Below are positions 13,681-24,217 of a stretch of DNA of 64,000 nt, one piece after another. The stretch's first letter is position 1. Each line of letters starts with the position of its first letter. Below the pieces are notes generated by a model that saw nothing but the letters and a program-made list of their open reading frames with translations, was not told the DNA's origin and searched no databases. The DNA is from an uncultured archaeon (GTDB taxonomy: Archaea > Asgardarchaeota > Thorarchaeia > Thorarchaeales > Thorarchaeaceae), in contig CAYYQL010000001.1 in NCBI GenBank assembly GCA_964473825.1, forward strand, positions 128,001 through 192,000, given 5' to 3'. A program made the translations under genes and the position numbers.

Positions 13681-14742
13681 ACGAAGATTGGTTTGATTTC
13701 CGGGAATGAGTCAAGCATGATTCAGGACGCCAAGTCAGTCCTGTACCTGTTGAATCAGGAGGGGGCCGACGTCATTCTGGAATATGCGCTGGCAGAAGCC
13801 TTAGGTTCGTCGGGTACACAGCTTGATGAGATAGATGCGGATATCCTGGCTATCGTTGGCTCTGACCGAACAGTCCTTAACACGCTACTGAAGATGGGCG
13901 ACTCCCCAATCCCGATTCTGCCCATTTCTTCGCGAGGGCAGCCAGACTTCTTCTTTGACGTTACAACAGGCAATTTCGAACTTGCCGTCGAAGACTTGAT
14001 TGCTGGCGAGTGGACTGAAGATCATCGTTCTCGGCTTTCAATCACTGTTGGCGATAGGGTATTTCCATCCGTACTCAATGAGGTGGCCATCTTCGCGAAA
14101 CGTAATGCTACACTGATTAGGTATTCACTGAATCTCGATGGAGAGGAATTCTGGAAAGACGGTAGTGACGGCCTTATCATAGCCACTCCTACCGGGAGTA
14201 CAGCCTACTCCTTGAGTACAGGTGGTCCCATAGTGCTATCTCCTGCCTCTGTTCTCTCTGTGATACCGGTGAACAGCACAAATCCAGCAAGAAGACCACT
14301 TATTGTATCAGACAATGTAGTAGTCGAGATTCGCAACCTGACCAGCCCGGTCATGGTAGAGGCTATACTAGATGGGCAGCTGAGGCATAACGTGAACTCT
14401 GGCCCGATCATTGCTAGAAGAGCAGATAGCGATGCAATATTCGTGAAACTTACTGAAGAGAGAATTGCCGCTCTACGCGGCAAGCTGCAAAAGAAAACAG
14501 ACATCCTTGAGGATCTTGCTCAAGATCTACCTCCCAGTGCGAAGCTCGTACTCAAAGTGCTGGAATACCATGAAAAACTGACAGCCAGACAGATTACAGA
14601 GGAAACCATGCTATCTGCGAGAACAGTAAGACATGCTCTCTCCATCCTGATGGCTGAAGGACTGGTCAAGAAGCACCTGTCACTCCGCGACAGCAGACGA
14701 GGACTATTTATGGCTGTCAAGCCAATCGAGCGCCAATCCTAG
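13681..14742 (+). CDS. NAD-kinase-family protein fused to a C-terminal winged HTH
   Basis: LNEV, DGLIIATPTGSTAYSLSTGGP, LDG; C-terminal LPPSAKLVLKVL...RTVRHALSIL...G wHTH. GGDGT is altered to GSDRT. Start uncertain (ACG 13681 or TTG 13693). Confidence 0.85.
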   Translation, partial: TKIGLISGNESSMIQDAKSVLYLLNQEGADVILEYALAEALGSSGTQLDEIDADILAIVGSDRTVLNTLLKMGDSPIPILPISSRGQPDFFFDVTTGNFELAVEDLIAGEWTEDHRSRLSITVGDRVFPSVLNEVAIFAKRNATLIRYSLNLDGEEFWKDGSDGLIIATPTGSTAYSLSTGGPIVLSPASVLSVIPVNSTNPARRPLIVSDNVVVEIRNLTSPVMVEAILDGQLRHNVNSGPIIARRADSDAIFVKLTEERIAALRGKLQKKTDILEDLAQDLPPSAKLVLKVLEYHEKLTARQITEETMLSARTVRHALSILMAEGLVKKHLSLRDSRRGLFMAVKPIERQS

Positions 14743-14755
14743 TAGATGATAAACC

Positions 14756-16891
14756 ATGACACTAATAGAACAACTCCGGGAAGATGCCTCCACAAAAGTG
14801 ATTCAGGATTTCTTCTCCCGGGTCTCGGCACATTCTTCATCCGAAGGAGGATCTGCTGTTTCAGACTTGGAGGGGCCATTGAAACGAAGCATGGAAATTG
14901 CAGTCTTACAGGCCAGAGAAGCCATCGATCAGGATATCGAGGGATTAGAACATGGTGAGAAGGTGAGAGAAACCTTACGCAAAATCTTTCTGAGCGAGGT
15001 AGACGGATTATCGTTGCAGGAATATCTCGATGCACTGGCAATGTGTTGCTATGGTTATATCTTCGGAAATTTCGATGAGGAAGACCTTCGATATGTATAC
15101 CGATACTCTCTCGGGAAGCTCCCTCATCAAGGCGTAGATACGCTTCTGAAGAGGGCCCTTCTTCTCATCGAAATCGCATCTGGAAAGGACGCGAGGCAGG
15201 CAATGACTTGTCTAAGAGAATGGATTGCGTTCTTGGGATCTCCCTACTGTATGCCGGAGGATTTCAAAGAACCTGCCACAGAACTTGGCTTGAATCTGGG
15301 AACAGCCCTGGAATCTGATGACTTCAGACTCACAGATTCCATCCGCAGATATCCGGAGTACTTGGAGGAGGCTCTGCGGGGCAAGGAATACTTGGATGTC
15401 TATAAGGCAACTCGAAGCTGGCTGCCTGACGTGCTGTCATCTAGGATTCTAGGTATATTCCGAAAGAGAGTCAATCAAGAAGCACAAGAGAAGATTGGCC
15501 CAGACACAGGTGTTTCAGAGGCATATGCTGTCATTCAGAGAGTCTATAAGAAGAGGGAATTCATGAGTGCTGAAGGTAGAGTACTGCCCATCCGCCTGCA
15601 AGATCTTGATTCGCCACCTCCTCCTGAAGCAGTTGAACCCGTCCTCTTTGAGATGATTCCACAGAAACTGCGAGTAGAACTGATGTCGTCAATTGCGTAT
15701 TCTAGAAAGACCAAGCAAGTAGAGATAATATTCCTTGGTGGGCCAGAAATTGGCAGAAGTGGCATCTTGGTGAGGACCGATACCAGTGCCATCCTCCTTG
15801 ATTACGGCCTTTCAGTTGCTAACCAGAGAATCCCTGAATGGGTTCCTGAACTTGAGATGATCGACTCTGTGCTTATCACACACTCACATCTTGATCACGT
15901 TGGAGGACTTCCTGCACTCTATGAGCACTATTCGGGGAAGTGGTGTGCAAGCGGGGTCACAGGGGCAGTCTCGATGACTCTTCTTGAGGATGCCCTCAAG
16001 GTAGGGACTCCACTTCCGCCAAGACGCAATGATAAGTATGACATGGTCTCGTGGTTCAATCGGACGAACATAGACAAAGTCAAGAGAAACTACGTACAAC
16101 TAGAAACGGGGACAGCAAGCGAATTAGCAGGAGGGATTGTTGTCACCCCGATTGAGGCAAGACACATTCCCGGAAGCTTGGCTTTCATCGTGGATGTGGA
16201 GGGAACCAGAATTCTCTACACAGGCGACTTCAATCTTGACAAATCCGTTCTCTTCCACGGGGCTACACTACCTACAGACTGTGATTTGACCATCTTTGAT
16301 GGCACATATTGGGAAAGGGAGGATTTCGACAGAAGACAGGTATCTGACCAGGTCTCGCAGACCATAGCCAGACACGGTCCAGTCATTATTCCAACCTTCG
16401 CCGTTGGCAGGTCACAGGAAGTCCTTGTCATGCTGGACGAACTCGGGATAACCTCATCGAGAAACGTGATTGTGGCCGGCATGGCAGAGCGAGTGACCAA
16501 GCTGACAGGGTACGATGGCGACTGGACAGGCATGAAAAAGAACAAAGTCGTTCTCGAAGATGACGACATTCTGGTGGCTGGAGGCGGAATGCTCGACGGC
16601 GGCTTTGCCAAAATGCACTATAATGAGCATCGACATAACCCAGATGCAGCTGTTATCTTGTGTGGGTACCTTGCACCACGCACAACTGGATGGAATCTCT
16701 TGCATGGACACGAAGATCACAAGTGTGCTGTTGAATATGCAAGGCTTAGTGCCCACTCATCAGCCTCAAGGCTTACAGAGTTCGTTGCTTCTTGCACGGG
16801 CAAGAAGGCCATGGTTCATACTCCAATCAAGAAGACCGGTGGCGATATCCTACTACCCCAATATAGGGAGAGGATCGTGCTTGACGTCTAG
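14756..16891 (+). CDS. beta-CASP MBL-fold ribonuclease-like protein with a ~320-aa N-terminal helical extension
   Basis: FLGG..EIGRS, LLDYG, THSHLDH, HIPGS, YTGDF, DGTY, FAVGRSQE, LSAHS. Confidence 0.85.
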   Translation: MTLIEQLREDASTKVIQDFFSRVSAHSSSEGGSAVSDLEGPLKRSMEIAVLQAREAIDQDIEGLEHGEKVRETLRKIFLSEVDGLSLQEYLDALAMCCYGYIFGNFDEEDLRYVYRYSLGKLPHQGVDTLLKRALLLIEIASGKDARQAMTCLREWIAFLGSPYCMPEDFKEPATELGLNLGTALESDDFRLTDSIRRYPEYLEEALRGKEYLDVYKATRSWLPDVLSSRILGIFRKRVNQEAQEKIGPDTGVSEAYAVIQRVYKKREFMSAEGRVLPIRLQDLDSPPPPEAVEPVLFEMIPQKLRVELMSSIAYSRKTKQVEIIFLGGPEIGRSGILVRTDTSAILLDYGLSVANQRIPEWVPELEMIDSVLITHSHLDHVGGLPALYEHYSGKWCASGVTGAVSMTLLEDALKVGTPLPPRRNDKYDMVSWFNRTNIDKVKRNYVQLETGTASELAGGIVVTPIEARHIPGSLAFIVDVEGTRILYTGDFNLDKSVLFHGATLPTDCDLTIFDGTYWEREDFDRRQVSDQVSQTIARHGPVIIPTFAVGRSQEVLVMLDELGITSSRNVIVAGMAERVTKLTGYDGDWTGMKKNKVVLEDDDILVAGGGMLDGGFAKMHYNEHRHNPDAAVILCGYLAPRTTGWNLLHGHEDHKCAVEYARLSAHSSASRLTEFVASCTGKKAMVHTPIKKTGGDILLPQYRERIVLDV

Positions 16892-16894
16892 CTT

Positions 16895-18868
16895 CTAAGC
16901 CACAATCTCAAGAACGCCAGAAAGCACAAGCTTGGTCGCGACGAACTTCATAGCGTTGTAGCTTACACCGACCTTCTTCACGACATCTTCCAGAGGTGTT
17001 TCGCCATCACAGTAATCCACGAATTTGACTACTGCAGTGCCATAAGCCTTGACTGTGTTAGGATCAGGATTCTTAACTTTCCTAGGAATGCTCTGTGGCC
17101 CGAGATCAACTTGGAAGCTGATCCATCCAAAGTGCTCCATGATCTGCAGCGCTCCAGTGACGTTCTCCCGGGGAAGGTCTAGGCTCCTAATCAAGCCTCC
17201 AATAGTTTCGGTTCCTTCTATTGCACTCTTGACCTCCACAATAGAACGTCCCACCTCTCTACTGTCGAATGATAGGGGACGACCAGCCTCACGGGCGCGG
17301 ACTACATAGTCGAAGCTAATGGGGCTCATTGGTATCTTCTGTAGAAGTGAAAAGACGGTGGGTTCAAAGATGGTCACATCGCCATCCCAGGTCTCCCAAG
17401 TTCCTTGATACGCTTCTTCGAACTCGAAGAGCAGAGAGGACATAATCTTTCGATACTTCTCCTCTTCACTGTCATTGGTGACTGTCACACCTAACAAGAA
17501 ATGGTCAGACTTCTCGACCATGACCAGGTTTCCTTCGTGCTCGATTCTCTTCAGGGCGTCGCTCTTATCGGCTATACCGCTGGGATCACCGTCGATTCCG
17601 CCGAAGGAATCAAGAGCTGAGATCAGAGATGTGATTGCGGTGGCGTCCACTTCCTCGTTGGCGTAGTTGAGCTCGTAGCAGGTATGGAACGTCCCGCCGT
17701 CTTGAACGATCATAATCACATGGAGAACCCGCGCCTGCTCAGCAATCTTGTCAGGAATCTCAACAACCGTATCAGATTCGGACTCGATATTGACGGGGTA
17801 GTCGATTGCCGAGTCCCCACTTACTCCGCCCGCTCTCAAGTCACCCGAGGGTGCGCTCTCTCCAGTATTCTGAGCTTCGACCCACTCCCCTGTCTCACCA
17901 GATGTGGCACCTGTAGCACTCCGAATATCACCAGGTCGTGGAGGTAACTCAGCCTCCTTGTCCTTTCTGTGAACAGTGATCATCTCACTCAGAGGCCTGT
18001 CGGGCAACTCAACTCCCACTGTCTTTGTAGCCACTTCCAGCATCAATCGAATGAATTCGTCCCTCCGAGTCTTGTCCGTTGCAACCATTGGGAACGTAGG
18101 AGCACCCAAGAGCCGCTGAATCTTCTCAGCTCGCATGGACTCTGGGAGGTCCTGCTTGTTTGCAATGATAAAGAGGGGAACCGCAGGAGCTTCCTTCCGA
18201 ATGGTTCGTAGCAGGCTCTTGGTCTGCATCACATTCCGGAAACTGCTGTCCGTAATCAGAAAGATGACGTCTGTTCCTGAGAAGTAGAAGGCCCAAAGAT
18301 CTTGAAATACCGCCTGCCCGGCGAAGTCCCATAAAGTTACCAGAAAAGTGCCGAATTGTATCGTTTCTGAGGAGTCTACGGCCACGTTGATGGTGGGAAC
18401 ATAGCCGCCAGGTGCTGGTTCCTTACCAAACAATAGTCTGAGCAATGTGCTCTTCCCAACACCACCGGAGCCAACAAAAGATACCTTGAACCTTGTGAAG
18501 ACCAGCTCATCTAGAATATCATCCAGATTGTCTTTCACATACCCTATGCTGTTGCCTCTCAGTGCAGTAGATATCCGGGCAGCCCCTTCTCGGGCCTTTC
18601 GGATAATTGTTCGATCCTCATCTCTGCCATCGGTAACAAGCATGAGCTGAATATCATCATCAACAAGAGAGTGGAATACCTTATGCTCACCGACATAGAC
18701 TGGCGTGTCTGGAGAGAGACCCTCAGTGTCCATGAGGTCCGAATACCCACTCATGAAATCATGTATATCATCATCAGTGAATTCTATCTTCCAGAATCTG
18801 ACCCTAGTGACGACCTCTCCAGTCGCCTTCTCGATGAGTATAACGTTGTGAATCAGATTGCAGCACAC
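16895..18868 (-). CDS. Longin - Arf-like small GTPase - longin - tandem wHTH multidomain protein
   Basis: G1 GSGGVGKS, G2 PTI, G3 WDFAGQ, G4 NKQD; longin-type beta-beta-alpha-beta-beta-beta-alpha patterns at both ends; two DG-x-T wHTH repeats. Confidence 0.85.
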   Translation of the reverse strand: MCCNLIHNVILIEKATGEVVTRVRFWKIEFTDDDIHDFMSGYSDLMDTEGLSPDTPVYVGEHKVFHSLVDDDIQLMLVTDGRDEDRTIIRKAREGAARISTALRGNSIGYVKDNLDDILDELVFTRFKVSFVGSGGVGKSTLLRLLFGKEPAPGGYVPTINVAVDSSETIQFGTFLVTLWDFAGQAVFQDLWAFYFSGTDVIFLITDSSFRNVMQTKSLLRTIRKEAPAVPLFIIANKQDLPESMRAEKIQRLLGAPTFPMVATDKTRRDEFIRLMLEVATKTVGVELPDRPLSEMITVHRKDKEAELPPRPGDIRSATGATSGETGEWVEAQNTGESAPSGDLRAGGVSGDSAIDYPVNIESESDTVVEIPDKIAEQARVLHVIMIVQDGGTFHTCYELNYANEEVDATAITSLISALDSFGGIDGDPSGIADKSDALKRIEHEGNLVMVEKSDHFLLGVTVTNDSEEEKYRKIMSSLLFEFEEAYQGTWETWDGDVTIFEPTVFSLLQKIPMSPISFDYVVRAREAGRPLSFDSREVGRSIVEVKSAIEGTETIGGLIRSLDLPRENVTGALQIMEHFGWISFQVDLGPQSIPRKVKNPDPNTVKAYGTAVVKFVDYCDGETPLEDVVKKVGVSYNAMKFVATKLVLSGVLEIVA

Positions 18869-18965
18869 TCCAGCAGAGCCCGTTTGTTTTATGTGAGATG
18901 ATGTTTTCCTTCAGGACGTGTAGTTAAATCAACCTCTATGAACCTTTGGTGGGGATACTGAGAGT

Positions 18966-20690
18966 CTATTTGAACGCAACCATACCCCGTTTATGAAGGT
19001 CTCTCAGCACATGAAGCACGACCCCAACATCGATTCCTGTCACTCCAGAGATGGCCTTTATTGTCTTGGCTCCGTCCACAGCCCTCAGGATACGCTCAAG
19101 GTCTGCATAGAGCTTGAGTACCTCAGGATCGGGGGGACTCGACATTTGAGGGATGTCCTCGGAAGTGATGAGTAAGTCAAAGCCTATGGAATCAAGCGCT
19201 TTGAGCAAGTGAATGGCACCCAAGCTCATCTTCGGACCCGCACCTTGCACAATTGTTTCGATAGTCAACGAACCATCAACCGTGTTCCAGACAGCCATCA
19301 GAAAGTCACGTACGAGCTCTGACTTGAACCGGTCCCAATCGGGAGCAGAAAGACGGTATGGAGCCATTCGATTCGAGAGTGTTTCGGGAGGGAGAGTGGC
19401 GAGAAGTTTGAGAGTAAAGGGTGGAGAGGCATAGAGGTCATCTCCTGCGGCAACCTCTTCGGGCTGCTCGTCTGCGTACAAATCTGGCAGAAACGAAAAG
19501 GTCTGTCTGAGCTCGTCCACATCACCCCTGTTGCCTGTTATCAGAGTAAAGATGAGGTCACCCCGTTCTATCATGATGTAGGTGAGATTCCCTGCTTTGA
19601 ACACCTCAGTCTTCATCTGCTGCATGGATTCCACATTGAACATGGACAAGGCCGCTACAATGTTTGGGGCGCGTGACAGAACGGTTGACTTTGATTCGTA
19701 GTAGTATGTATAGACTGCGTCACCCAAGTTCTTGTCAACAACGAAGAAGGCTTGGTGCCCGAGGACTTTCTCCTCACTAAGAACTCGGTCTTGTTCATCC
19801 TTCTCGAATAACTCGGTCCTCCATCGTTTCATTGCAAGCTCGGGATGCATGTCCGTGAGGCCACTCATTGCCAGTGTGGACAGAACCAGATGAGTTGAAT
19901 CGCCAGATGAAGCATCAGATAGCACAAGATCAAGTTCATACTCAAGGTTTCGAGCCAATTCCAAACACTCTTCGTGGCCGGGTACGATGACTATTTCATC
20001 GCTATGTACTTCTCTGACCCTTGATACAACGGAACGAATCTCGTCTGTTTCTGCCTCAGAATTAACGACAATGGTGTATACATTGCAGGACTGCATCTCT
20101 GAGGGCAGACCTTGGGAAGCAGCGGCATCAAGATCAATCTGGCAGAATCTCACACCTAAGGGACCGAACGAAAACGGCGATGTGAAGAAAGAACCGTTCT
20201 TCTTCTTTTGTTCGACGATTCGACTGACCGCGAGTCCAGTTCGGTTCCCCGGAAGAGGTTTCGAGGGACTGATGAAGCATACTCTGACTTCCTTTTGGAG
20301 AATGTCGGATGCCATGGAGGGAAAGCTGTCCTTCTCTTCGAGGGCTGAAGACGACGCTATCAAATCCTGAATTGCGGTTCTGAGCTTCTTGAAACTGGAC
20401 ATCTCTTCAGCATCACACTGCTCTCCCTCGATGACACAGAGCAACGCAGTCCGCTCATCCAGACGGCCAACCAGACACTTGAAGTCTACTGCACTGATTG
20501 TGGTACATTCTGCGTCGGGTTCACGCTCAACAACATCATAGACCCTCTCCATAATCAAGCCAAATCTCGTCTTCACTATACTCTCGTTCTCGAAGCTCAT
20601 CTCTGACAGGATTTTCGAGCCTATGAGGTCTATAAGATACGCAGAACGTATCACTGGATTGATTCTCCTTATTGGGGCAACGACGGCCAT
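18966..20690 (-). CDS. Paralogous longin - degenerate GTPase-like - longin - tandem wHTH protein
   Basis: Same order of segments as the neighbour; P-loop position reads RVCFISPSKPLPGNRT; C-terminal VDGSLTIE and VDGAKTIKAIS...LHKRGMV wHTH repeats. Confidence 0.65.
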   Translation of the reverse strand: MAVVAPIRRINPVIRSAYLIDLIGSKILSEMSFENESIVKTRFGLIMERVYDVVEREPDAECTTISAVDFKCLVGRLDERTALLCVIEGEQCDAEEMSSFKKLRTAIQDLIASSSALEEKDSFPSMASDILQKEVRVCFISPSKPLPGNRTGLAVSRIVEQKKKNGSFFTSPFSFGPLGVRFCQIDLDAAASQGLPSEMQSCNVYTIVVNSEAETDEIRSVVSRVREVHSDEIVIVPGHEECLELARNLEYELDLVLSDASSGDSTHLVLSTLAMSGLTDMHPELAMKRWRTELFEKDEQDRVLSEEKVLGHQAFFVVDKNLGDAVYTYYYESKSTVLSRAPNIVAALSMFNVESMQQMKTEVFKAGNLTYIMIERGDLIFTLITGNRGDVDELRQTFSFLPDLYADEQPEEVAAGDDLYASPPFTLKLLATLPPETLSNRMAPYRLSAPDWDRFKSELVRDFLMAVWNTVDGSLTIETIVQGAGPKMSLGAIHLLKALDSIGFDLLITSEDIPQMSSPPDPEVLKLYADLERILRAVDGAKTIKAISGVTGIDVGVVLHVLRDLHKRGMVAFK

Positions 20691-20729: not shown

Positions 20730-22040
20730 TTACAAGGTTCTGGGGTCTTGCACTTGCGGGTCTGCTCGTCGCTTGAGAAAGTCACTGACATCTGTGATGC
20801 CTCTCATCGCTTTCTGATATTCATACTCTGGATCAGATATCGAATTCCCAGAGGCTTCATAGACCTCGCCGGTCTCCAAAGGAGGGAGATCAGAAATCGC
20901 CTCTTTGACCGAAACGGGCTTGGGCAGACCAGGCGGGTCATAGACGGGTTCCGATCGGTTAGTGCCAACTTTTACCGCTGAGAACAGGGATATCGGTCTT
21001 GCTGGTGGCTCACCTTCCGTAGAACCTACAATGAAGACGCGCCTTCTCCTCTGAGGTACGCCGAATTGTTCAGCCTTCAGAATGAACCAGTCTACCGCAT
21101 AACCCAGCATCTCAGTCCTCTCAATCAACCCTCTGAGGATTCCGCCCTTTCCAATCCATGAGAGGCCCGTCACATTCTCAATAACAAAGTAGTCTGGTGA
21201 CAAGTCTTCAATTGCTCTAACCATTATGCCGATGAGATTGTTGCGATTGTCTGACACACTCCACTTCCCGGCGGTTGAGAATCCTTGACAAGGTGGACCT
21301 CCCACCAACAAACTGGGCCTCTCCGTTCCCAGAGTCTCATCTATAGTAGACATCAATGCCGCATATTCGCTAGGGACAGACAGATCGGCCTGTATGGTCT
21401 TCACATTGGGATGATTGAATGAGTATGCTTCACACATCGCCTTCTCCACATCAGAGGCAAGAGCAATCTCATGTCCTGCGAGCTGAAGGCCACATGACAG
21501 GCCTCCCGCTCCAGAGAACAGGTCCACAGCTGTTCCCGGAGGGATTGTCATGCCAACAGCTCGTGCAAGCAGAGGTGGTACTGCGTTGCCGACCTGCTTG
21601 TACTGGGAACTTGCTGAGCCCAGAAACCTGTAGTCATCGAAGAAGGACTGGAGCCTAGCTGCCTCTCGAACCGAAATCATGCGGTCTTGCTCAGGGTGGG
21701 CAAAGCTACCATTTCCAGGACGATGGAAGTATGTGCTGACGGTGTAGCTTGGGAGGTCATTTCTCAAACGGCCATAATATGTGGTACGACCACCGGACCT
21801 TCGGATTTGCATGATTCTCTTGGACTTCTTGGCAATAGTGAGGGGGATGTCGTCCCAGTTGCCGCCAGGCGGCACCGACTTGATGATTTCTATGTCGAGT
21901 TCACTGAGAGAAGGAGCCACATGATTATAGAGAACAGCTCTAGTCTCATCCGTGGTTTCAAGTCCCAAGTCGATGGTCATCAGGTACACCAAGTCCAGAG
22001 TGGAATTCTCTGTCACACTGAAAAATGTACTGCGTGACAT
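20730..22040 (-). CDS. Circularly permuted DNA (cytosine-5)-methyltransferase, Alw26I/Eco31I/Esp3I-like
   Basis: TRD, motif IX (REAARLQSF) and X (KQVGNAVPP) precede motif I (DLFSGAGG), IV (GGPPCQGFS), VI (ENV) and VIII (GVPQRRRR). Confidence 0.9.
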   Translation of the reverse strand: MSRSTFFSVTENSTLDLVYLMTIDLGLETTDETRAVLYNHVAPSLSELDIEIIKSVPPGGNWDDIPLTIAKKSKRIMQIRRSGGRTTYYGRLRNDLPSYTVSTYFHRPGNGSFAHPEQDRMISVREAARLQSFFDDYRFLGSASSQYKQVGNAVPPLLARAVGMTIPPGTAVDLFSGAGGLSCGLQLAGHEIALASDVEKAMCEAYSFNHPNVKTIQADLSVPSEYAALMSTIDETLGTERPSLLVGGPPCQGFSTAGKWSVSDNRNNLIGIMVRAIEDLSPDYFVIENVTGLSWIGKGGILRGLIERTEMLGYAVDWFILKAEQFGVPQRRRRVFIVGSTEGEPPARPISLFSAVKVGTNRSEPVYDPPGLPKPVSVKEAISDLPPLETGEVYEASGNSISDPEYEYQKAMRGITDVSDFLKRRADPQVQDPRTL

Positions 22041-24217
22041 TACATGGCTTCATCCATTCTTACCACGATATCTTCAACTTCCTTCTCCTCTGCGGCAAGG
22101 TGAGATAGAACGATCCGGGCCTGTTCAGAAGATATCTTATAGAGTTGAAAGACATGGCCTTCCAATCTATAACTACAAGCCGTGTTTCCATTCAACATGG
22201 CTCCGACATCTTTCACAATCGCATCATAGAGATTCTCCTCTTTTGCTGTTAGATCAAAAGGAGGTGGAATCGGTAGGTGCCCCAATTCCCTATTGGAAAC
22301 ATGATTGTTGGTATTCGTAATGGCAAACCGCCAGTTCAGGAGTGAAGAGTTCAGAAGGCCCAAAAGGTAGAGAAGGAGAAACCCACGCTCCTGGGACGTA
22401 AGAGTCAGATAGTTGCAGGAGTTTGCCAACACTACATGAGGTTCTACGAGCGCGAATTTCAATCTCCAGCGTTGTTTGCGATTCGAGACCTGCTGACAAG
22501 CGATGCGTTCGCGCTCTGAATGAGCAATCCGCTCTGAGGTGCTATGCTTCTCTCTGAAAGCATCATAATCCACAAAGTCCTCTATCTCAATACTCGAGGT
22601 ATGAGCGAATCTTCTGATGTGTGACCCTCTGAGCAGCGGAGGCTTATCAGGATCTGCACTTATCAGATTCTTGTCCAGAGTGAGGTCAAGCTCCCCCCTA
22701 CATATTCGTACCCAGTCATGCCTGTTCAAGCTTGCTTGCTTGTGCATAATGTCAAGTATCTGCCAATCCTGTGAGTTCAATCGTGGAATGATATACTCAC
22801 TTCCTGAAAGGTTTTCTATCCTTTGAACAGAGATATTCTCAAGACGTGGCTTCGAACGGGAATGCAGATGCTGAAGACCGAAAGCAGCAGGGATGATACC
22901 GCTGGGTCTTCCCTTCTTCACACTCATAATACATAGAGCCTGTGTCACATTGGGGAAAAGCGAAGAGCCTTCTTGGTATTCTTCAAGGCGATAGATGGAG
23001 TGCTTGGTGAGAATCTCTTCTCTCAAAGCTGCAGCAGAGAGGTCTCCGAGAACCGATGCAGGAACGATGAAACCCAGTCGAGCATCACTTCTTGAGATAC
23101 GAAGTGCTCGCTCAATGAACAGCCTGTGAGTGTCTAATGTGTACTTGTTTGCAAGGGTGTACTCACCAGAGTTCCTGAAGTACCCGACTCTTTCCTTCAA
23201 CTCAGTCTTGTATGCCTCAAACCCTTCCATATCGACTTCGCGTTCGCCCTGAGAAAGACGCTCTCTGATGTACTCAGCACGGCTTGGATGGAGTCTGTCA
23301 TATGGAGGATTCATCACCACGAAGCGGAATCCGCCTTGGTCTAGAATCTCGCACTCGAAACGTTCGTTCCAATTAAGCTCATTTATCGATGGGGCAGATA
23401 GATACTCCTTTGGAGCACATGACTGCCCCCTAAGAGAGCCAATCAAAGAATCACCTTGAATTATGTGTCCACTAGGTATCCGCTTCTCCAGTCCAAGCTC
23501 TGTCAACCTGTGGTTCAGTACTCTATGCGCAACCTCCACACTAGCCCCATCAAGGTCAACTCCATAGAAACCGTCAAGAAACCAGGACAGATACTGTCCG
23601 TAGTCAGTCTTGTCACATGACCGCTTAAGCCGGCTGGACATATAGTCAACTGCGGAAAGAAGGAACGCCCCTGGGCCGCAGGCCGGGTCGATTAATGTGA
23701 ACTCATCAGCAGCGCGCTCCCAAGCAGAAGAGCTCTCCTGGAGGATTCTCTCTTCCAGCCAAGGTCCAAGAGTGATTCCAACGATATGTTGAGCTACAGG
23801 CATAGGTGTGAAGTAGCTTCCAAGAATGCGCCGTCGTTTCTGAACCGTAGAAGCGCTGACGGGTCTAAAGGCCCCTATTGAATGAACTTTAAGCATAAGG
23901 CTGGTAGGACTATAGCATGGAGAATGCCCAAGTTCTTCCATCAAGCTGCTACCGCAGAACTCCTCCAGCAGTTGCCGGACATCGTCGATAATACGCGGCT
24001 GATCGAGTCCTGATCTCTCTCCAAGGAATGTAAGCCTTCGAAAGAACAACTCATCATCCGCATTGTTGTTGCGGCGATAAAGCCAGTTGAGTGCAGCCAG
24101 ACGTGTGCATTCCATGACATGGCGCTGGGAGTGCTCAGAAGCGATTCCGAGACGGTCTGCGATCTGCCTTGTCTCGTCTACTATTCTCAGAGCAACATTG
24201 CCATCAAGGGCACTCAT
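22040..24217 (-). CDS. DNA N6-adenine methyltransferase (gamma class), Alw26I/Eco31I/Esp3I-like
   Basis: GSYFTP, DPACGPGAFL, NPPY, C-terminal CQQVSN...NSCNY...NNHVSNREL; stop overlaps the C5-MTase start (TAATG). Confidence 0.88.
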   Translation of the reverse strand: MSALDGNVALRIVDETRQIADRLGIASEHSQRHVMECTRLAALNWLYRRNNNADDELFFRRLTFLGERSGLDQPRIIDDVRQLLEEFCGSSLMEELGHSPCYSPTSLMLKVHSIGAFRPVSASTVQKRRRILGSYFTPMPVAQHIVGITLGPWLEERILQESSSAWERAADEFTLIDPACGPGAFLLSAVDYMSSRLKRSCDKTDYGQYLSWFLDGFYGVDLDGASVEVAHRVLNHRLTELGLEKRIPSGHIIQGDSLIGSLRGQSCAPKEYLSAPSINELNWNERFECEILDQGGFRFVVMNPPYDRLHPSRAEYIRERLSQGEREVDMEGFEAYKTELKERVGYFRNSGEYTLANKYTLDTHRLFIERALRISRSDARLGFIVPASVLGDLSAAALREEILTKHSIYRLEEYQEGSSLFPNVTQALCIMSVKKGRPSGIIPAAFGLQHLHSRSKPRLENISVQRIENLSGSEYIIPRLNSQDWQILDIMHKQASLNRHDWVRICRGELDLTLDKNLISADPDKPPLLRGSHIRRFAHTSSIEIEDFVDYDAFREKHSTSERIAHSERERIACQQVSNRKQRWRLKFALVEPHVVLANSCNYLTLTSQERGFLLLYLLGLLNSSLLNWRFAITNTNNHVSNRELGHLPIPPPFDLTAKEENLYDAIVKDVGAMLNGNTACSYRLEGHVFQLYKISSEQARIVLSHLAAEEKEVEDIVVRMDEAM

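Follow-up and report, generated by a model that had tools for sequence, protein, structure and literature searches.

A conserved pair of Thorarchaeota paralogues, one with an Arf-like GTPase domain and one with a predicted pseudo-GTPase domain, that carry NPRL2-related C-terminal modules

What do two neighboring genes in the genome of a Thorarchaeota archaeon encode, and do their products act as a pair? The genes lie on the minus strand of a stretch of 64,000 nucleotides (nt) from an uncultured member of the Thorarchaeaceae (contig CAYYQL010000001.1, positions 128,001 to 192,000), which we refer to as the window, and their open reading frames (ORFs), of 657 and 574 amino acids (aa), are separated by 97 nt. 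We find that the two proteins share one architecture and are paralogues, that one of them has lost its G motifs while keeping the fold in its model, that their C-terminal modules are homologous to NPRL2, a protein of eukaryotic nutrient signaling, and yeast Npr2, and that the order and co-occurrence of the genes are conserved. The pair is most likely a pseudo-symmetric heterodimeric GTP switch composed of one live and one dead paralogue, a reading to which we give an even chance of being right.

One layout, one live and one degenerate G domain

Each protein has about 200 homologues (more than 190) at E ≤ 1e-3, those named coming mostly from Thorarchaeota, and on this evidence both ORFs are real, conserved genes. 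Source annotations of the homologues of the 657-aa protein read "ADP-ribosylation factor-like" or "small GTP-binding protein," and the G+C content is uniform throughout the region of the pair. An earlier reading of the locus, made from the sequence only, had proposed that these co-oriented neighbors share a four-part layout; BLASTP, hhalign and modeled secondary structure all confirm it. Common to both proteins is a longin, followed by a G domain, another longin, a junction and a pair of winged helices (WHs), and the secondary structure of both models runs bb-a-bbb-a(a), G-type alpha/beta, bb-a-bbb-a and two H-H-H-E-E units. The C-terminal halves match each other at BLASTP E 1e-5, and hhalign lines up the two family profiles (A1 versus A2) in the same order along 551 columns (probability 97.6%, E 2.9e-12). 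Judged from these alignments, the proteins are end-to-end paralogues. Their features are as follows.

16895..18868, minus strand: gene for the 657-aa GTPase protein (P0001; ORF, translation, Pfam Arf 2.3e-17)
18497..18856, minus strand: 657-aa protein, N-terminal longin, residues 5-124 (model topology bb-a-bbb-a-a)
18011..18496, minus strand: 657-aa protein, Arf-like G domain, residues 125-286 (Pfam Arf/Roc/Ras; G1-G4 motifs)
17741..18010, minus strand: 657-aa protein, acidic linker, residues 287-376 (poorly conserved, predicted disordered)
17399..17740, minus strand: 657-aa protein, second (NPRL2-like) longin, residues 377-490 (model bb-a-bbb-a; homologous to residues 306-410 of the 574-aa protein)
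16898..17398, minus strand: 657-aa protein, junction and two WHs, residues 491-657 (H-H-H-E-E at 537-597 and 603-656)
18966..20690, minus strand: gene for the 574-aa predicted pseudo-GTPase protein (P0002; ORF, translation, hhalign against the 657-aa family)
20346..20654, minus strand: 574-aa protein, N-terminal longin, residues 13-115 (structural match to solved longins)
19821..20303, minus strand: 574-aa protein, predicted pseudo-GTPase domain, residues 130-290 (small-GTPase fold, motifs lost)
19461..19775, minus strand: 574-aa protein, second (NPRL2-like) longin, residues 306-410 (model bb-a-bbb-a)
18969..19460, minus strand: 574-aa protein, junction (FTLKLLATLPPE...) and two WHs, residues 411-574 (model; profile alignment to NPRL2)

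Both N-terminal domains have the topology of longins and match solved longins structurally (VIA-align Z 11.3-14.2, root-mean-square deviation (rmsd) 2.5-3.3 Å, about 115 residues aligned). The domain of the 657-aa protein, in which R24, R82, R98 and R104 are invariant, superposes on the longins of delta/zeta-COP and sigma/mu-adaptin with Z 12-14.2 (rmsd 2.5-2.9 Å, about 116 aligned), and that of the 574-aa protein on those of delta/zeta-COP, VAMP7, sigma-adaptin and Sec22b with Z 11.3-13.3.

The sequence-only reading saw a complete Arf-like GTPase in the 657-aa protein, and every motif that it quoted is there: G1 GSGGVGKS(T) at residues 133-140, G2 PTI with T159, G3 WDFAGQ at 180-185, which includes the catalytic-type Gln185, and G4 NKQD at 237-240, all invariant in 58 of 58 family members. 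The domain matches Pfam Arf at 2.3e-17 (63.5 bits, cut-off 22.3), Roc at 2.2e-15 and Ras at 1.7e-12, the protein reaches 60.3 bits for NCBIfam small_GTP (cut-off 42.5), and the solved structure that the family profile matches best in the PDB is Arf1 (E 8.7e-15). With all of G1-G4 present and hidden Markov model scores above cut-off, this is an Arf-like small GTPase of the Ras superfamily, which, given its motifs, should bind and hydrolyze GTP. It is neither a canonical Arf nor an Asgard ArfR, as its N terminus is a 120-residue longin with no amphipathic helix and its G3, WDFAGQ, departs from the WDxGGQ interswitch signature of Arf/ArfR. The Pfam Gtr1_RagA score of 21.3 bits (E 2.1e-4) falls under the cut-off of 22, and a match to this family is recorded for some orthologues. 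The acidic linker behind the G domain has a predicted local distance difference test (pLDDT) score below 50 over residues 290-376, a median isoelectric point (pI) of 4.2 and a consensus that is mostly "x"; the WH units that follow the second longin are modeled at pLDDT 82-94.

A 601-aa paralogue is encoded elsewhere in the genome (C11:22993-24798; locus L013 1494-3299(-)). It has an N-terminal longin and an Arf-like G domain (Arf 1.1e-21), followed by some 320 aa of unrelated C-terminal sequence with no NPRL2-like module, and orthologues are found in nearly all genomes of the family.

If the 657-aa protein carries a live GTPase, what has become of the corresponding domain in its neighbor? A pseudo-GTPase had been proposed, and both halves of that term hold. 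The patterns GxxxxGK[ST] (G1), DxxG (G3) and NKxD (G4) occur at the aligned positions in 0 of 56 members of the 574-aa family; in the hhalign alignment of the families a variable acidic stretch lies opposite the P-loop of the 657-aa protein, and a conserved P-G-S-D-type motif lies opposite its NKQD. Yet in the AlphaFold model (mean pLDDT 82) the central domain (residues 130-281) can be laid over Rheb, Rab, Rho and Rac at Z 10.8-11.5, with 135-142 residues aligned and an rmsd of 3.1-3.6 Å, and residues 13-298 match the shape of a Thorarchaeota longin-Arf cluster in the ESM-Atlas. Since the motifs are missing from all 56 members while the modeled small-GTPase fold is kept, the designation pseudo-GTPase is justified at the level of sequence and model, and the domain is expected not to bind nucleotide. 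The protein is strongly conserved along its whole length. Because the dead domain has kept its fold together with invariant residues of its own (for example P237, R247, E250, D259 and W290), its conservation points to purifying selection on what would be a non-catalytic role. In Pfam, NCBIfam and PADLOC the 574-aa protein has no name beyond weak matches to Fuz_longin_1, HTH_47 and DUF742, and the ESM-Atlas feature search returned unnamed archaeal clusters only.

The C-terminal module and its kinship with NPRL2

In both C-terminal halves a second longin is followed by a conserved junction and then by two winged helices of H-H-H-E-E form. The sequence-only reading had likened the junction and the first WH to NPRL2, and profile searches against the PDB (177,635 sequences) bear this out, with a signal that strengthened as the C-module profile was broadened. 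With the profile of the Thorarchaeota C-halves (A3), NPRL2 was the best sequence at E 0.054, the last WH of the 574-aa protein matching NPRL2 residues 172-236 (E 0.054). The profile of a related Asgard family of about 410 aa from Hodarchaeales, Heimdallarchaeaceae and others (A4), which aligns with A3 at an hhalign probability of 99.7%, reached Npr2 at E 0.0029 and NPRL2 at E 0.0036 over residues 171-328, a range that includes both winged helices. The combined profile (A5) placed human NPRL2 (two chains, E 3.7e-5 and 4.1e-5) and yeast Npr2 (E 1.7e-4) in the top three positions; the alignment covers NPRL2 residues 153-254 and Npr2 residues 256-316 and spans the same junction (FTLKLLATLPPE... 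against ...LKVIEQRPDPP... of NPRL2) together with the DG-containing first winged helix. Full-length family profiles gave no NPRL match in the PDB, and profiles of the C-module alone gave one. Both proteins thus unite longin, junction and tandem WHs with sequence homology to NPRL2.

Structural comparison agrees, as far as rank is concerned, with the likeness to NPRL2 and NPRL3 that had been proposed. In Foldseek searches NPRL2/NPRL3/Npr2-type chains rank first for both models, the best matches being longin subunits of GATOR1/SEACIT (8fw5_C, 3.6e-5; 8adl_S, 1.4e-6), and the matches at E 1e-6 to 1e-4 comprise Npr2/NPRL2/NPRL3, RagA/C, Gtr1/2, LokiRagO and Mon1-Ccz1. For the 574-aa protein, RagA/C, Gtr1/2, LokiRagO, Mon1-Ccz1 and CPLANE come next after the NPRL-type chains. 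In the VIA-align re-alignments it was the N-terminal longin and G domain, not the C-half, that took up the matches, and a Rag-type architecture, in which a G domain is followed by a C-terminal roadblock/longin domain, may fit these model-based fold matches about equally well. Residues 309-574 of the 574-aa protein also match the shape of a 291-aa Thorarchaeota family in the ESM-Atlas (TM 0.68), its second longin gives weak Pfam Fuz_longin_1 matches in 12 of 56 members, and the second-longin profile matches the longin of MON1 at E 0.01.

Does this homology make the module a true GATOR1-like GTPase-activating protein (GAP)? In that case the NPRL2-like halves would form a longin heterodimer and offer an arginine finger to the fused G domain or to separate Rag-like GTPases. 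Besides the significant profile homology and the GATOR1/SEACIT chains at the head of the Foldseek matches, one arginine of the second longin is invariant across all sub-families (R473 in the 657-aa protein, R395 in the 574-aa protein), and elsewhere in the genome two GTPases of Gtr1/RagA type are encoded in tandem. However, the GP motif before strand 2 that marks GAP-type longins (PMC12290439) occurs in the strand 1-strand 2 region of the NPRL2-like longins in 0 of 58 members of the 657-aa family and 0 of 56 of the 574-aa family; it is seen in 12 of 56 N-terminal longins of the latter family, this genome's protein not being among them. In the models the invariant arginine sits in the helix after the last strand, and the sequence alignment to NPRL2 begins at residue 153, past Arg78, the catalytic arginine finger of NPRL2. 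Pfam NPR2 (PF06218) and NPR3 (PF03666) matched none of the two proteins, their halves, the 56 family members and 16 distant relatives even at E up to 1-5; the sole hint came from one of the stand-alone paralogues, which matches HTH_NPRL3 at E 0.052. DEPDC5/Iml1 (PF12257) is also unmatched in this genome, which is 95.7% complete, although the same model was blank in every control genome. A true GAP is therefore distinctly unlikely in our estimation. The homology to NPRL2 that underlay the proposal of a "GATOR1-like regulator" stands, whereas the missing GP motif and the unmatched Pfam families speak against the regulator itself, so that this label and "nutrient signalling" persist as analogy. 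We describe the C-half as an NPRL2-related module, for which the status of a GATOR1 subunit would be a further step by analogy.

Within the window, matches to the C-module at E ≤ 0.01 are confined to the pair; further copies lie at C1:315-317 kb and on contig C7. The former are tandem, co-oriented genes for stand-alone NPRL2-like proteins of 280 aa (C1:315284-316126 and 316186-317028; locus L004 584-1426(-) and 1486-2328(-)), each a longin with two WHs, which share 37% identity (BLASTP 4e-57). As an analogy in form, this pair without G domains is closer to NPRL2-NPRL3 than the live/dead pair is. The copy on C7 is a third stand-alone protein, of 302 aa. On C8 (57132-58168, plus strand), two tandem small GTPases (frames of 193 and 206 aa) score above the Pfam Gtr1_RagA cut-off and are possible Rag-like clients of the genome's NPRL2-like proteins. 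In other proteins retrieved with the profile (P0345, P0349, P0375) the NPRL2-like longin is fused to PCI/UFM1-ligase-like WHs, a KaiC-type ATPase or tetratricopeptide repeats, fusions that would fit a published description of this longin as widely shuffled among domain contexts in Asgard archaea (bioRxiv 10.1101/2020.10.19.343400).

It is also conceivable that the tandem winged helices bind DNA, gated by the G domain and the longins, and that the proteins are GTP-switched transcription regulators whose candidate targets would be the co-directional methyltransferase genes upstream. The WH regions do give weak matches to MarR, TrmB, Rrf2 and HTH_47, with MarR-type helix-turn-helix matches in both, and the source annotation of a Hodarchaeales relative of the module reads "predicted transcriptional regulator." But the winged helices, with a median pI of 4.7-5.7 and a net charge of -1 to -3, range from acidic to neutral, and in the alignments the last (third) helix of the WH, which would serve as the recognition helix, is hydrophobic as in NPRL2, itself no DNA binder. 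Their nearest significant relatives are NPRL2 and Npr2 and not DNA-binding regulators, and the DUF742 winged helix-turn-helix (wHTH) of the bacterial conservon is reported to have guanine nucleotide exchange factor (GEF) activity on a GTPase (PMC11343762). Altogether, we regard DNA-binding regulators as quite improbable.

Do the two proteins work together?

Among 26 genomes sampled from the Thorarchaeota family to which the window belongs, 24 have the full-length 574-aa protein, against 0 of 124 genomes from other sampled families of the phylum. Of the 41 genomes of the order, nearly all have a full-length orthologue of the 657-aa protein; exceptions such as G116 and G124 possess only a longin-GTPase paralogue. 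Wherever contigs permit, the order is the gene for the dead protein, about 100 nt, then the gene for the live protein on the same strand (at least 22 genomes, at least 12 genera). Within one family the two genes are present together in 27 genomes and absent together from 2: G116 and G124 lack both, while their congeners G151 and G152 carry both, adjacent. The co-conservation expected of a functional pair is thus borne out, down to a joint absence.

Rag, NPRL2/3 and Mon1-Ccz1 are heterodimers of paralogues. By analogy, a heterodimeric switch is favored by the fact that the closest structural relatives of our proteins are all paralogue dimers that act on small GTPases. In such a switch longin domains would join the two partners, on the pattern of RagA-RagC, NPRL2-NPRL3 or Mon1-Ccz1. 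The 657-aa subunit, with G1-G4 and Gln185 intact, would bind and hydrolyze GTP, and the 574-aa subunit, free of nucleotide, would support it structurally or regulate it. Whether in cis or in trans, the longin platforms might read or determine the nucleotide state of the only live G domain, and the acidic NPRL2-like winged helices could serve as protein-binding output scaffolds and not as readers of DNA. That the two proteins physically pair, which of them regulates the other, what the output is and what the signal is are all points that we infer.

Several observations weigh against the heterodimeric switch. The pair lies in a 15-kb block (N6-adenine methyltransferase, 5-methylcytosine (m5C) methyltransferase, the pair, beta-CASP RNase, NAD-kinase-wHTH, NadA) that two relatives retain with proteins only 38-39% identical, and because this whole neighborhood is syntenic in the family, the adjacency of the two genes is weak evidence that they are partners. 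In the sister family the orthologue of the GTPase gene occupies the corresponding place on the chromosome, with the genes for beta-CASP RNase, NAD-kinase-wHTH and NadA after it and no twin. Since that family keeps it alone, the GTPase protein can evidently work without the dead twin, which would be either an addition specific to one family or a loss in the sister lineage. A maximum-likelihood tree of the C-module does not group the live and dead copies as sisters, the branch of the dead copy being very long, at 2.88 changes per site; an origin of the dead twin by direct duplication is not proven by this tree. The pairing claim itself draws on gene order, paralogy and analogy, which bring it about halfway to certainty; complex prediction for the C-halves (residues 377-657 with 306-574, with alignments) scored 0.10 and 0.01, with the mark at 0.32, and speaks neither for nor against binding. 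The history of the lineages suggests that the GTPase protein first acted alone or as a homodimer and that its degenerate twin was gained in the ancestor of one Thorarchaeota family.

The same facts lend themselves to another account, in which the two proteins are independent: neighbors by tandem duplication, each acting alone or as a homodimer, with the dead copy as an unrelated scaffold. The synteny of the whole block and the solitary GTPase gene of the sister family speak for it, as do the 528-aa ORF that one genome carries on the opposite strand between the dead and live genes, and the A/T-rich, TATA-like stretch found 25-45 nt upstream of each gene's own start. (A sigma-70 and intrinsic-terminator scan, of a type unsuited to archaea, gave background levels.) What this account leaves out is why the genes are present together in 27 genomes of one family and absent together from 2, why the dead copy is conserved over its entire length and why relatives with the same combination of folds act as paralogue heterodimers. 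We consider independence unlikely, though the least so of the alternatives.

Could the neighborhood point to another function? Just upstream of the pair (window 20730-24217, minus strand) lie genes for a 725-aa N6-adenine methyltransferase of the Eco57I/TaqI_C type and a 436-aa m5C methyltransferase, overlapping by one base; the latter has its target-recognition part ahead of the catalytic motifs. No nuclease gene adjoins the two methyltransferase genes in the window. They precede the pair in the two relatives but not in the sister family. The four co-directional, tightly spaced genes could be imagined as a DNA-modification or defense-like unit, all the more as N6-methyltransferase, m5C-methyltransferase, dead gene and live gene keep this order in relatives of such low identity. 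Yet PADLOC models match neither protein of the pair and neither has a nuclease domain, the orthologous GTPase gene of the sister lineage has a caspase/PPC gene upstream and no methyltransferases, and the synteny extends into unrelated housekeeping genes. Such a unit is the least credible of the explanations that we have weighed, and we think it highly improbable.

On the other side of the pair, at window positions 14756-16891 (plus strand) and thus convergent with the GTPase gene, a 711-aa metallo-beta-lactamase/beta-CASP protein is encoded, whose N-terminal region spans about 330 aa; its layout suggests a candidate archaeal CPSF-type RNase. The gene adjoins the GTPase gene even in the sister family. 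Beyond it (13693-14742, plus strand) is a gene for a 349-aa protein in which an NAD-kinase C-terminal domain is fused to a MarR-type wHTH; in relatives it lies beside nadA. The sequencing runs listed for this stretch are of DNA, none of RNA, and those that cover it in full come from microbial-mat metagenomes only.

Known relatives and what the pair may mean

How does the pair compare with systems that are already understood? NPRL2-NPRL3 (Npr2-Npr3 in yeast), the longin subunits of GATOR1/SEACIT that form a GAP for RagA/Gtr1, have the same longin, junction and tandem WHs and are paralogous subunits, just as two paralogous proteins are encoded side by side here. In the Thorarchaeota proteins, however, the module is fused behind a longin and a G or dead-G domain, lacks the GP motif and any match to Pfam NPR2/NPR3, and ends without the C-terminal extension that NPRL2 has past its two winged helices.

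The Rag/Gtr proteins (RagA/B-RagC/D, Gtr1-Gtr2) and LokiRagO, a Rag-like GTPase from Asgard archaea (PDB 8yl2, a homotetramer by its PDB title), share the succession of a G domain and a roadblock/longin dimerization domain and match the dead protein in Foldseek at E 3e-6 to 1e-4 over 300-330 columns; Rag/Gtr also consists of two paralogous subunits. Whereas both Rag subunits are live GTPases, one of ours is dead, the live G domain scores as Arf-like (Arf 2.3e-17 against Gtr1_RagA 2.1e-4) with NKQD as its G4, and an N-terminal longin and two C-terminal winged helices are added. The tri-longin RabGEFs (Mon1-Ccz1, Fuzzy-Inturned, HPS1-HPS4) are likewise pseudo-symmetric, multi-longin paralogue dimers that act on a small GTPase, and the likeness extends to Foldseek matches at E 5e-6 to 5e-4, the MON1 profile match and the weak Fuz_longin_1 matches. 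They differ in that our proteins have a G or pseudo-G domain in the middle, a built-in client GTPase and WHs. Finally, the actinobacterial conservon combines the same three kinds of parts, roadblock/longin, wHTH and Ras-like GTPase, into one switch, with CvnB/MfpD as roadblock GAP, CvnC/MfpC as DUF742 wHTH GEF and CvnD/MfpB as GTPase (PMC11343762, PMC9769811). The likeness goes no further than weak Pfam matches to DUF742 in 9 of 56 members of the dead-protein family, and the conservon, in contrast, is a bacterial system of separate small proteins with a sensor kinase and no pseudo-GTPase.

The building blocks themselves have been published from the same phylum. Fusions in which a G domain sits between a longin and a roadblock domain are described for Lokiarchaeia MK-D1 (PMC10933270); the sequence-only reading, too, had noted that Asgard longin-GTPase fusions are known in general. 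An NPRL2-like protein, consisting of a longin and an NPRL2-specific C-terminal family, is placed in "most Thor MAGs" (metagenome-assembled genomes) by another report (bioRxiv 10.1101/2020.10.19.343400), and "NPRL2-like longin domain" is an asCOG label (PMC9834061). As far as they are accessible, the Lokiarchaeia paper and the bioRxiv report describe neither the two types of module in one chain nor a live/dead pair. Our search, which covered the main text of papers outside subscription journals, found no published account of an NPRL2-like plus longin-GTPase chain with a conserved dead twin, and it is only the paired live/dead arrangement that seems undescribed.

Asgard genomes are rich in genes for longin, roadblock and small-GTPase proteins, and most assignments of regulators to GTPases are unknown since such genes are rarely linked (PMC10933270). 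At this locus the link comes ready-made: one chain unites an NPRL2-related module with an Arf-like G domain, and a conserved dead twin is encoded next to it. A bolder form of the switch would have the proteins as an obligate pseudo-symmetric heterodimer, a live GTPase covalently joined to its own NPRL2-type regulator and partnered by a dead twin, that survives in archaea as a form of the ancestral arrangement from which both the Rag-type heterodimers and the NPRL2-NPRL3 longin dimers, which lack G domains, could derive. We rate this as rather doubtful, more so than independent action of the two proteins; if true, it would be the first direct "Rosetta stone" link from an NPRL2-like module to a specific client GTPase before eukaryotes. 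With a sister lineage that has the live protein only, the locus also offers a natural example of how a paralogue heterodimer with one degenerate subunit may arise. The question of what archaeal relatives of Rag and GATOR1 do narrows to an experiment with two proteins, and the same two proteins bear on the role, be it GAP, GEF or scaffold, of modules that combine a longin with winged helices.

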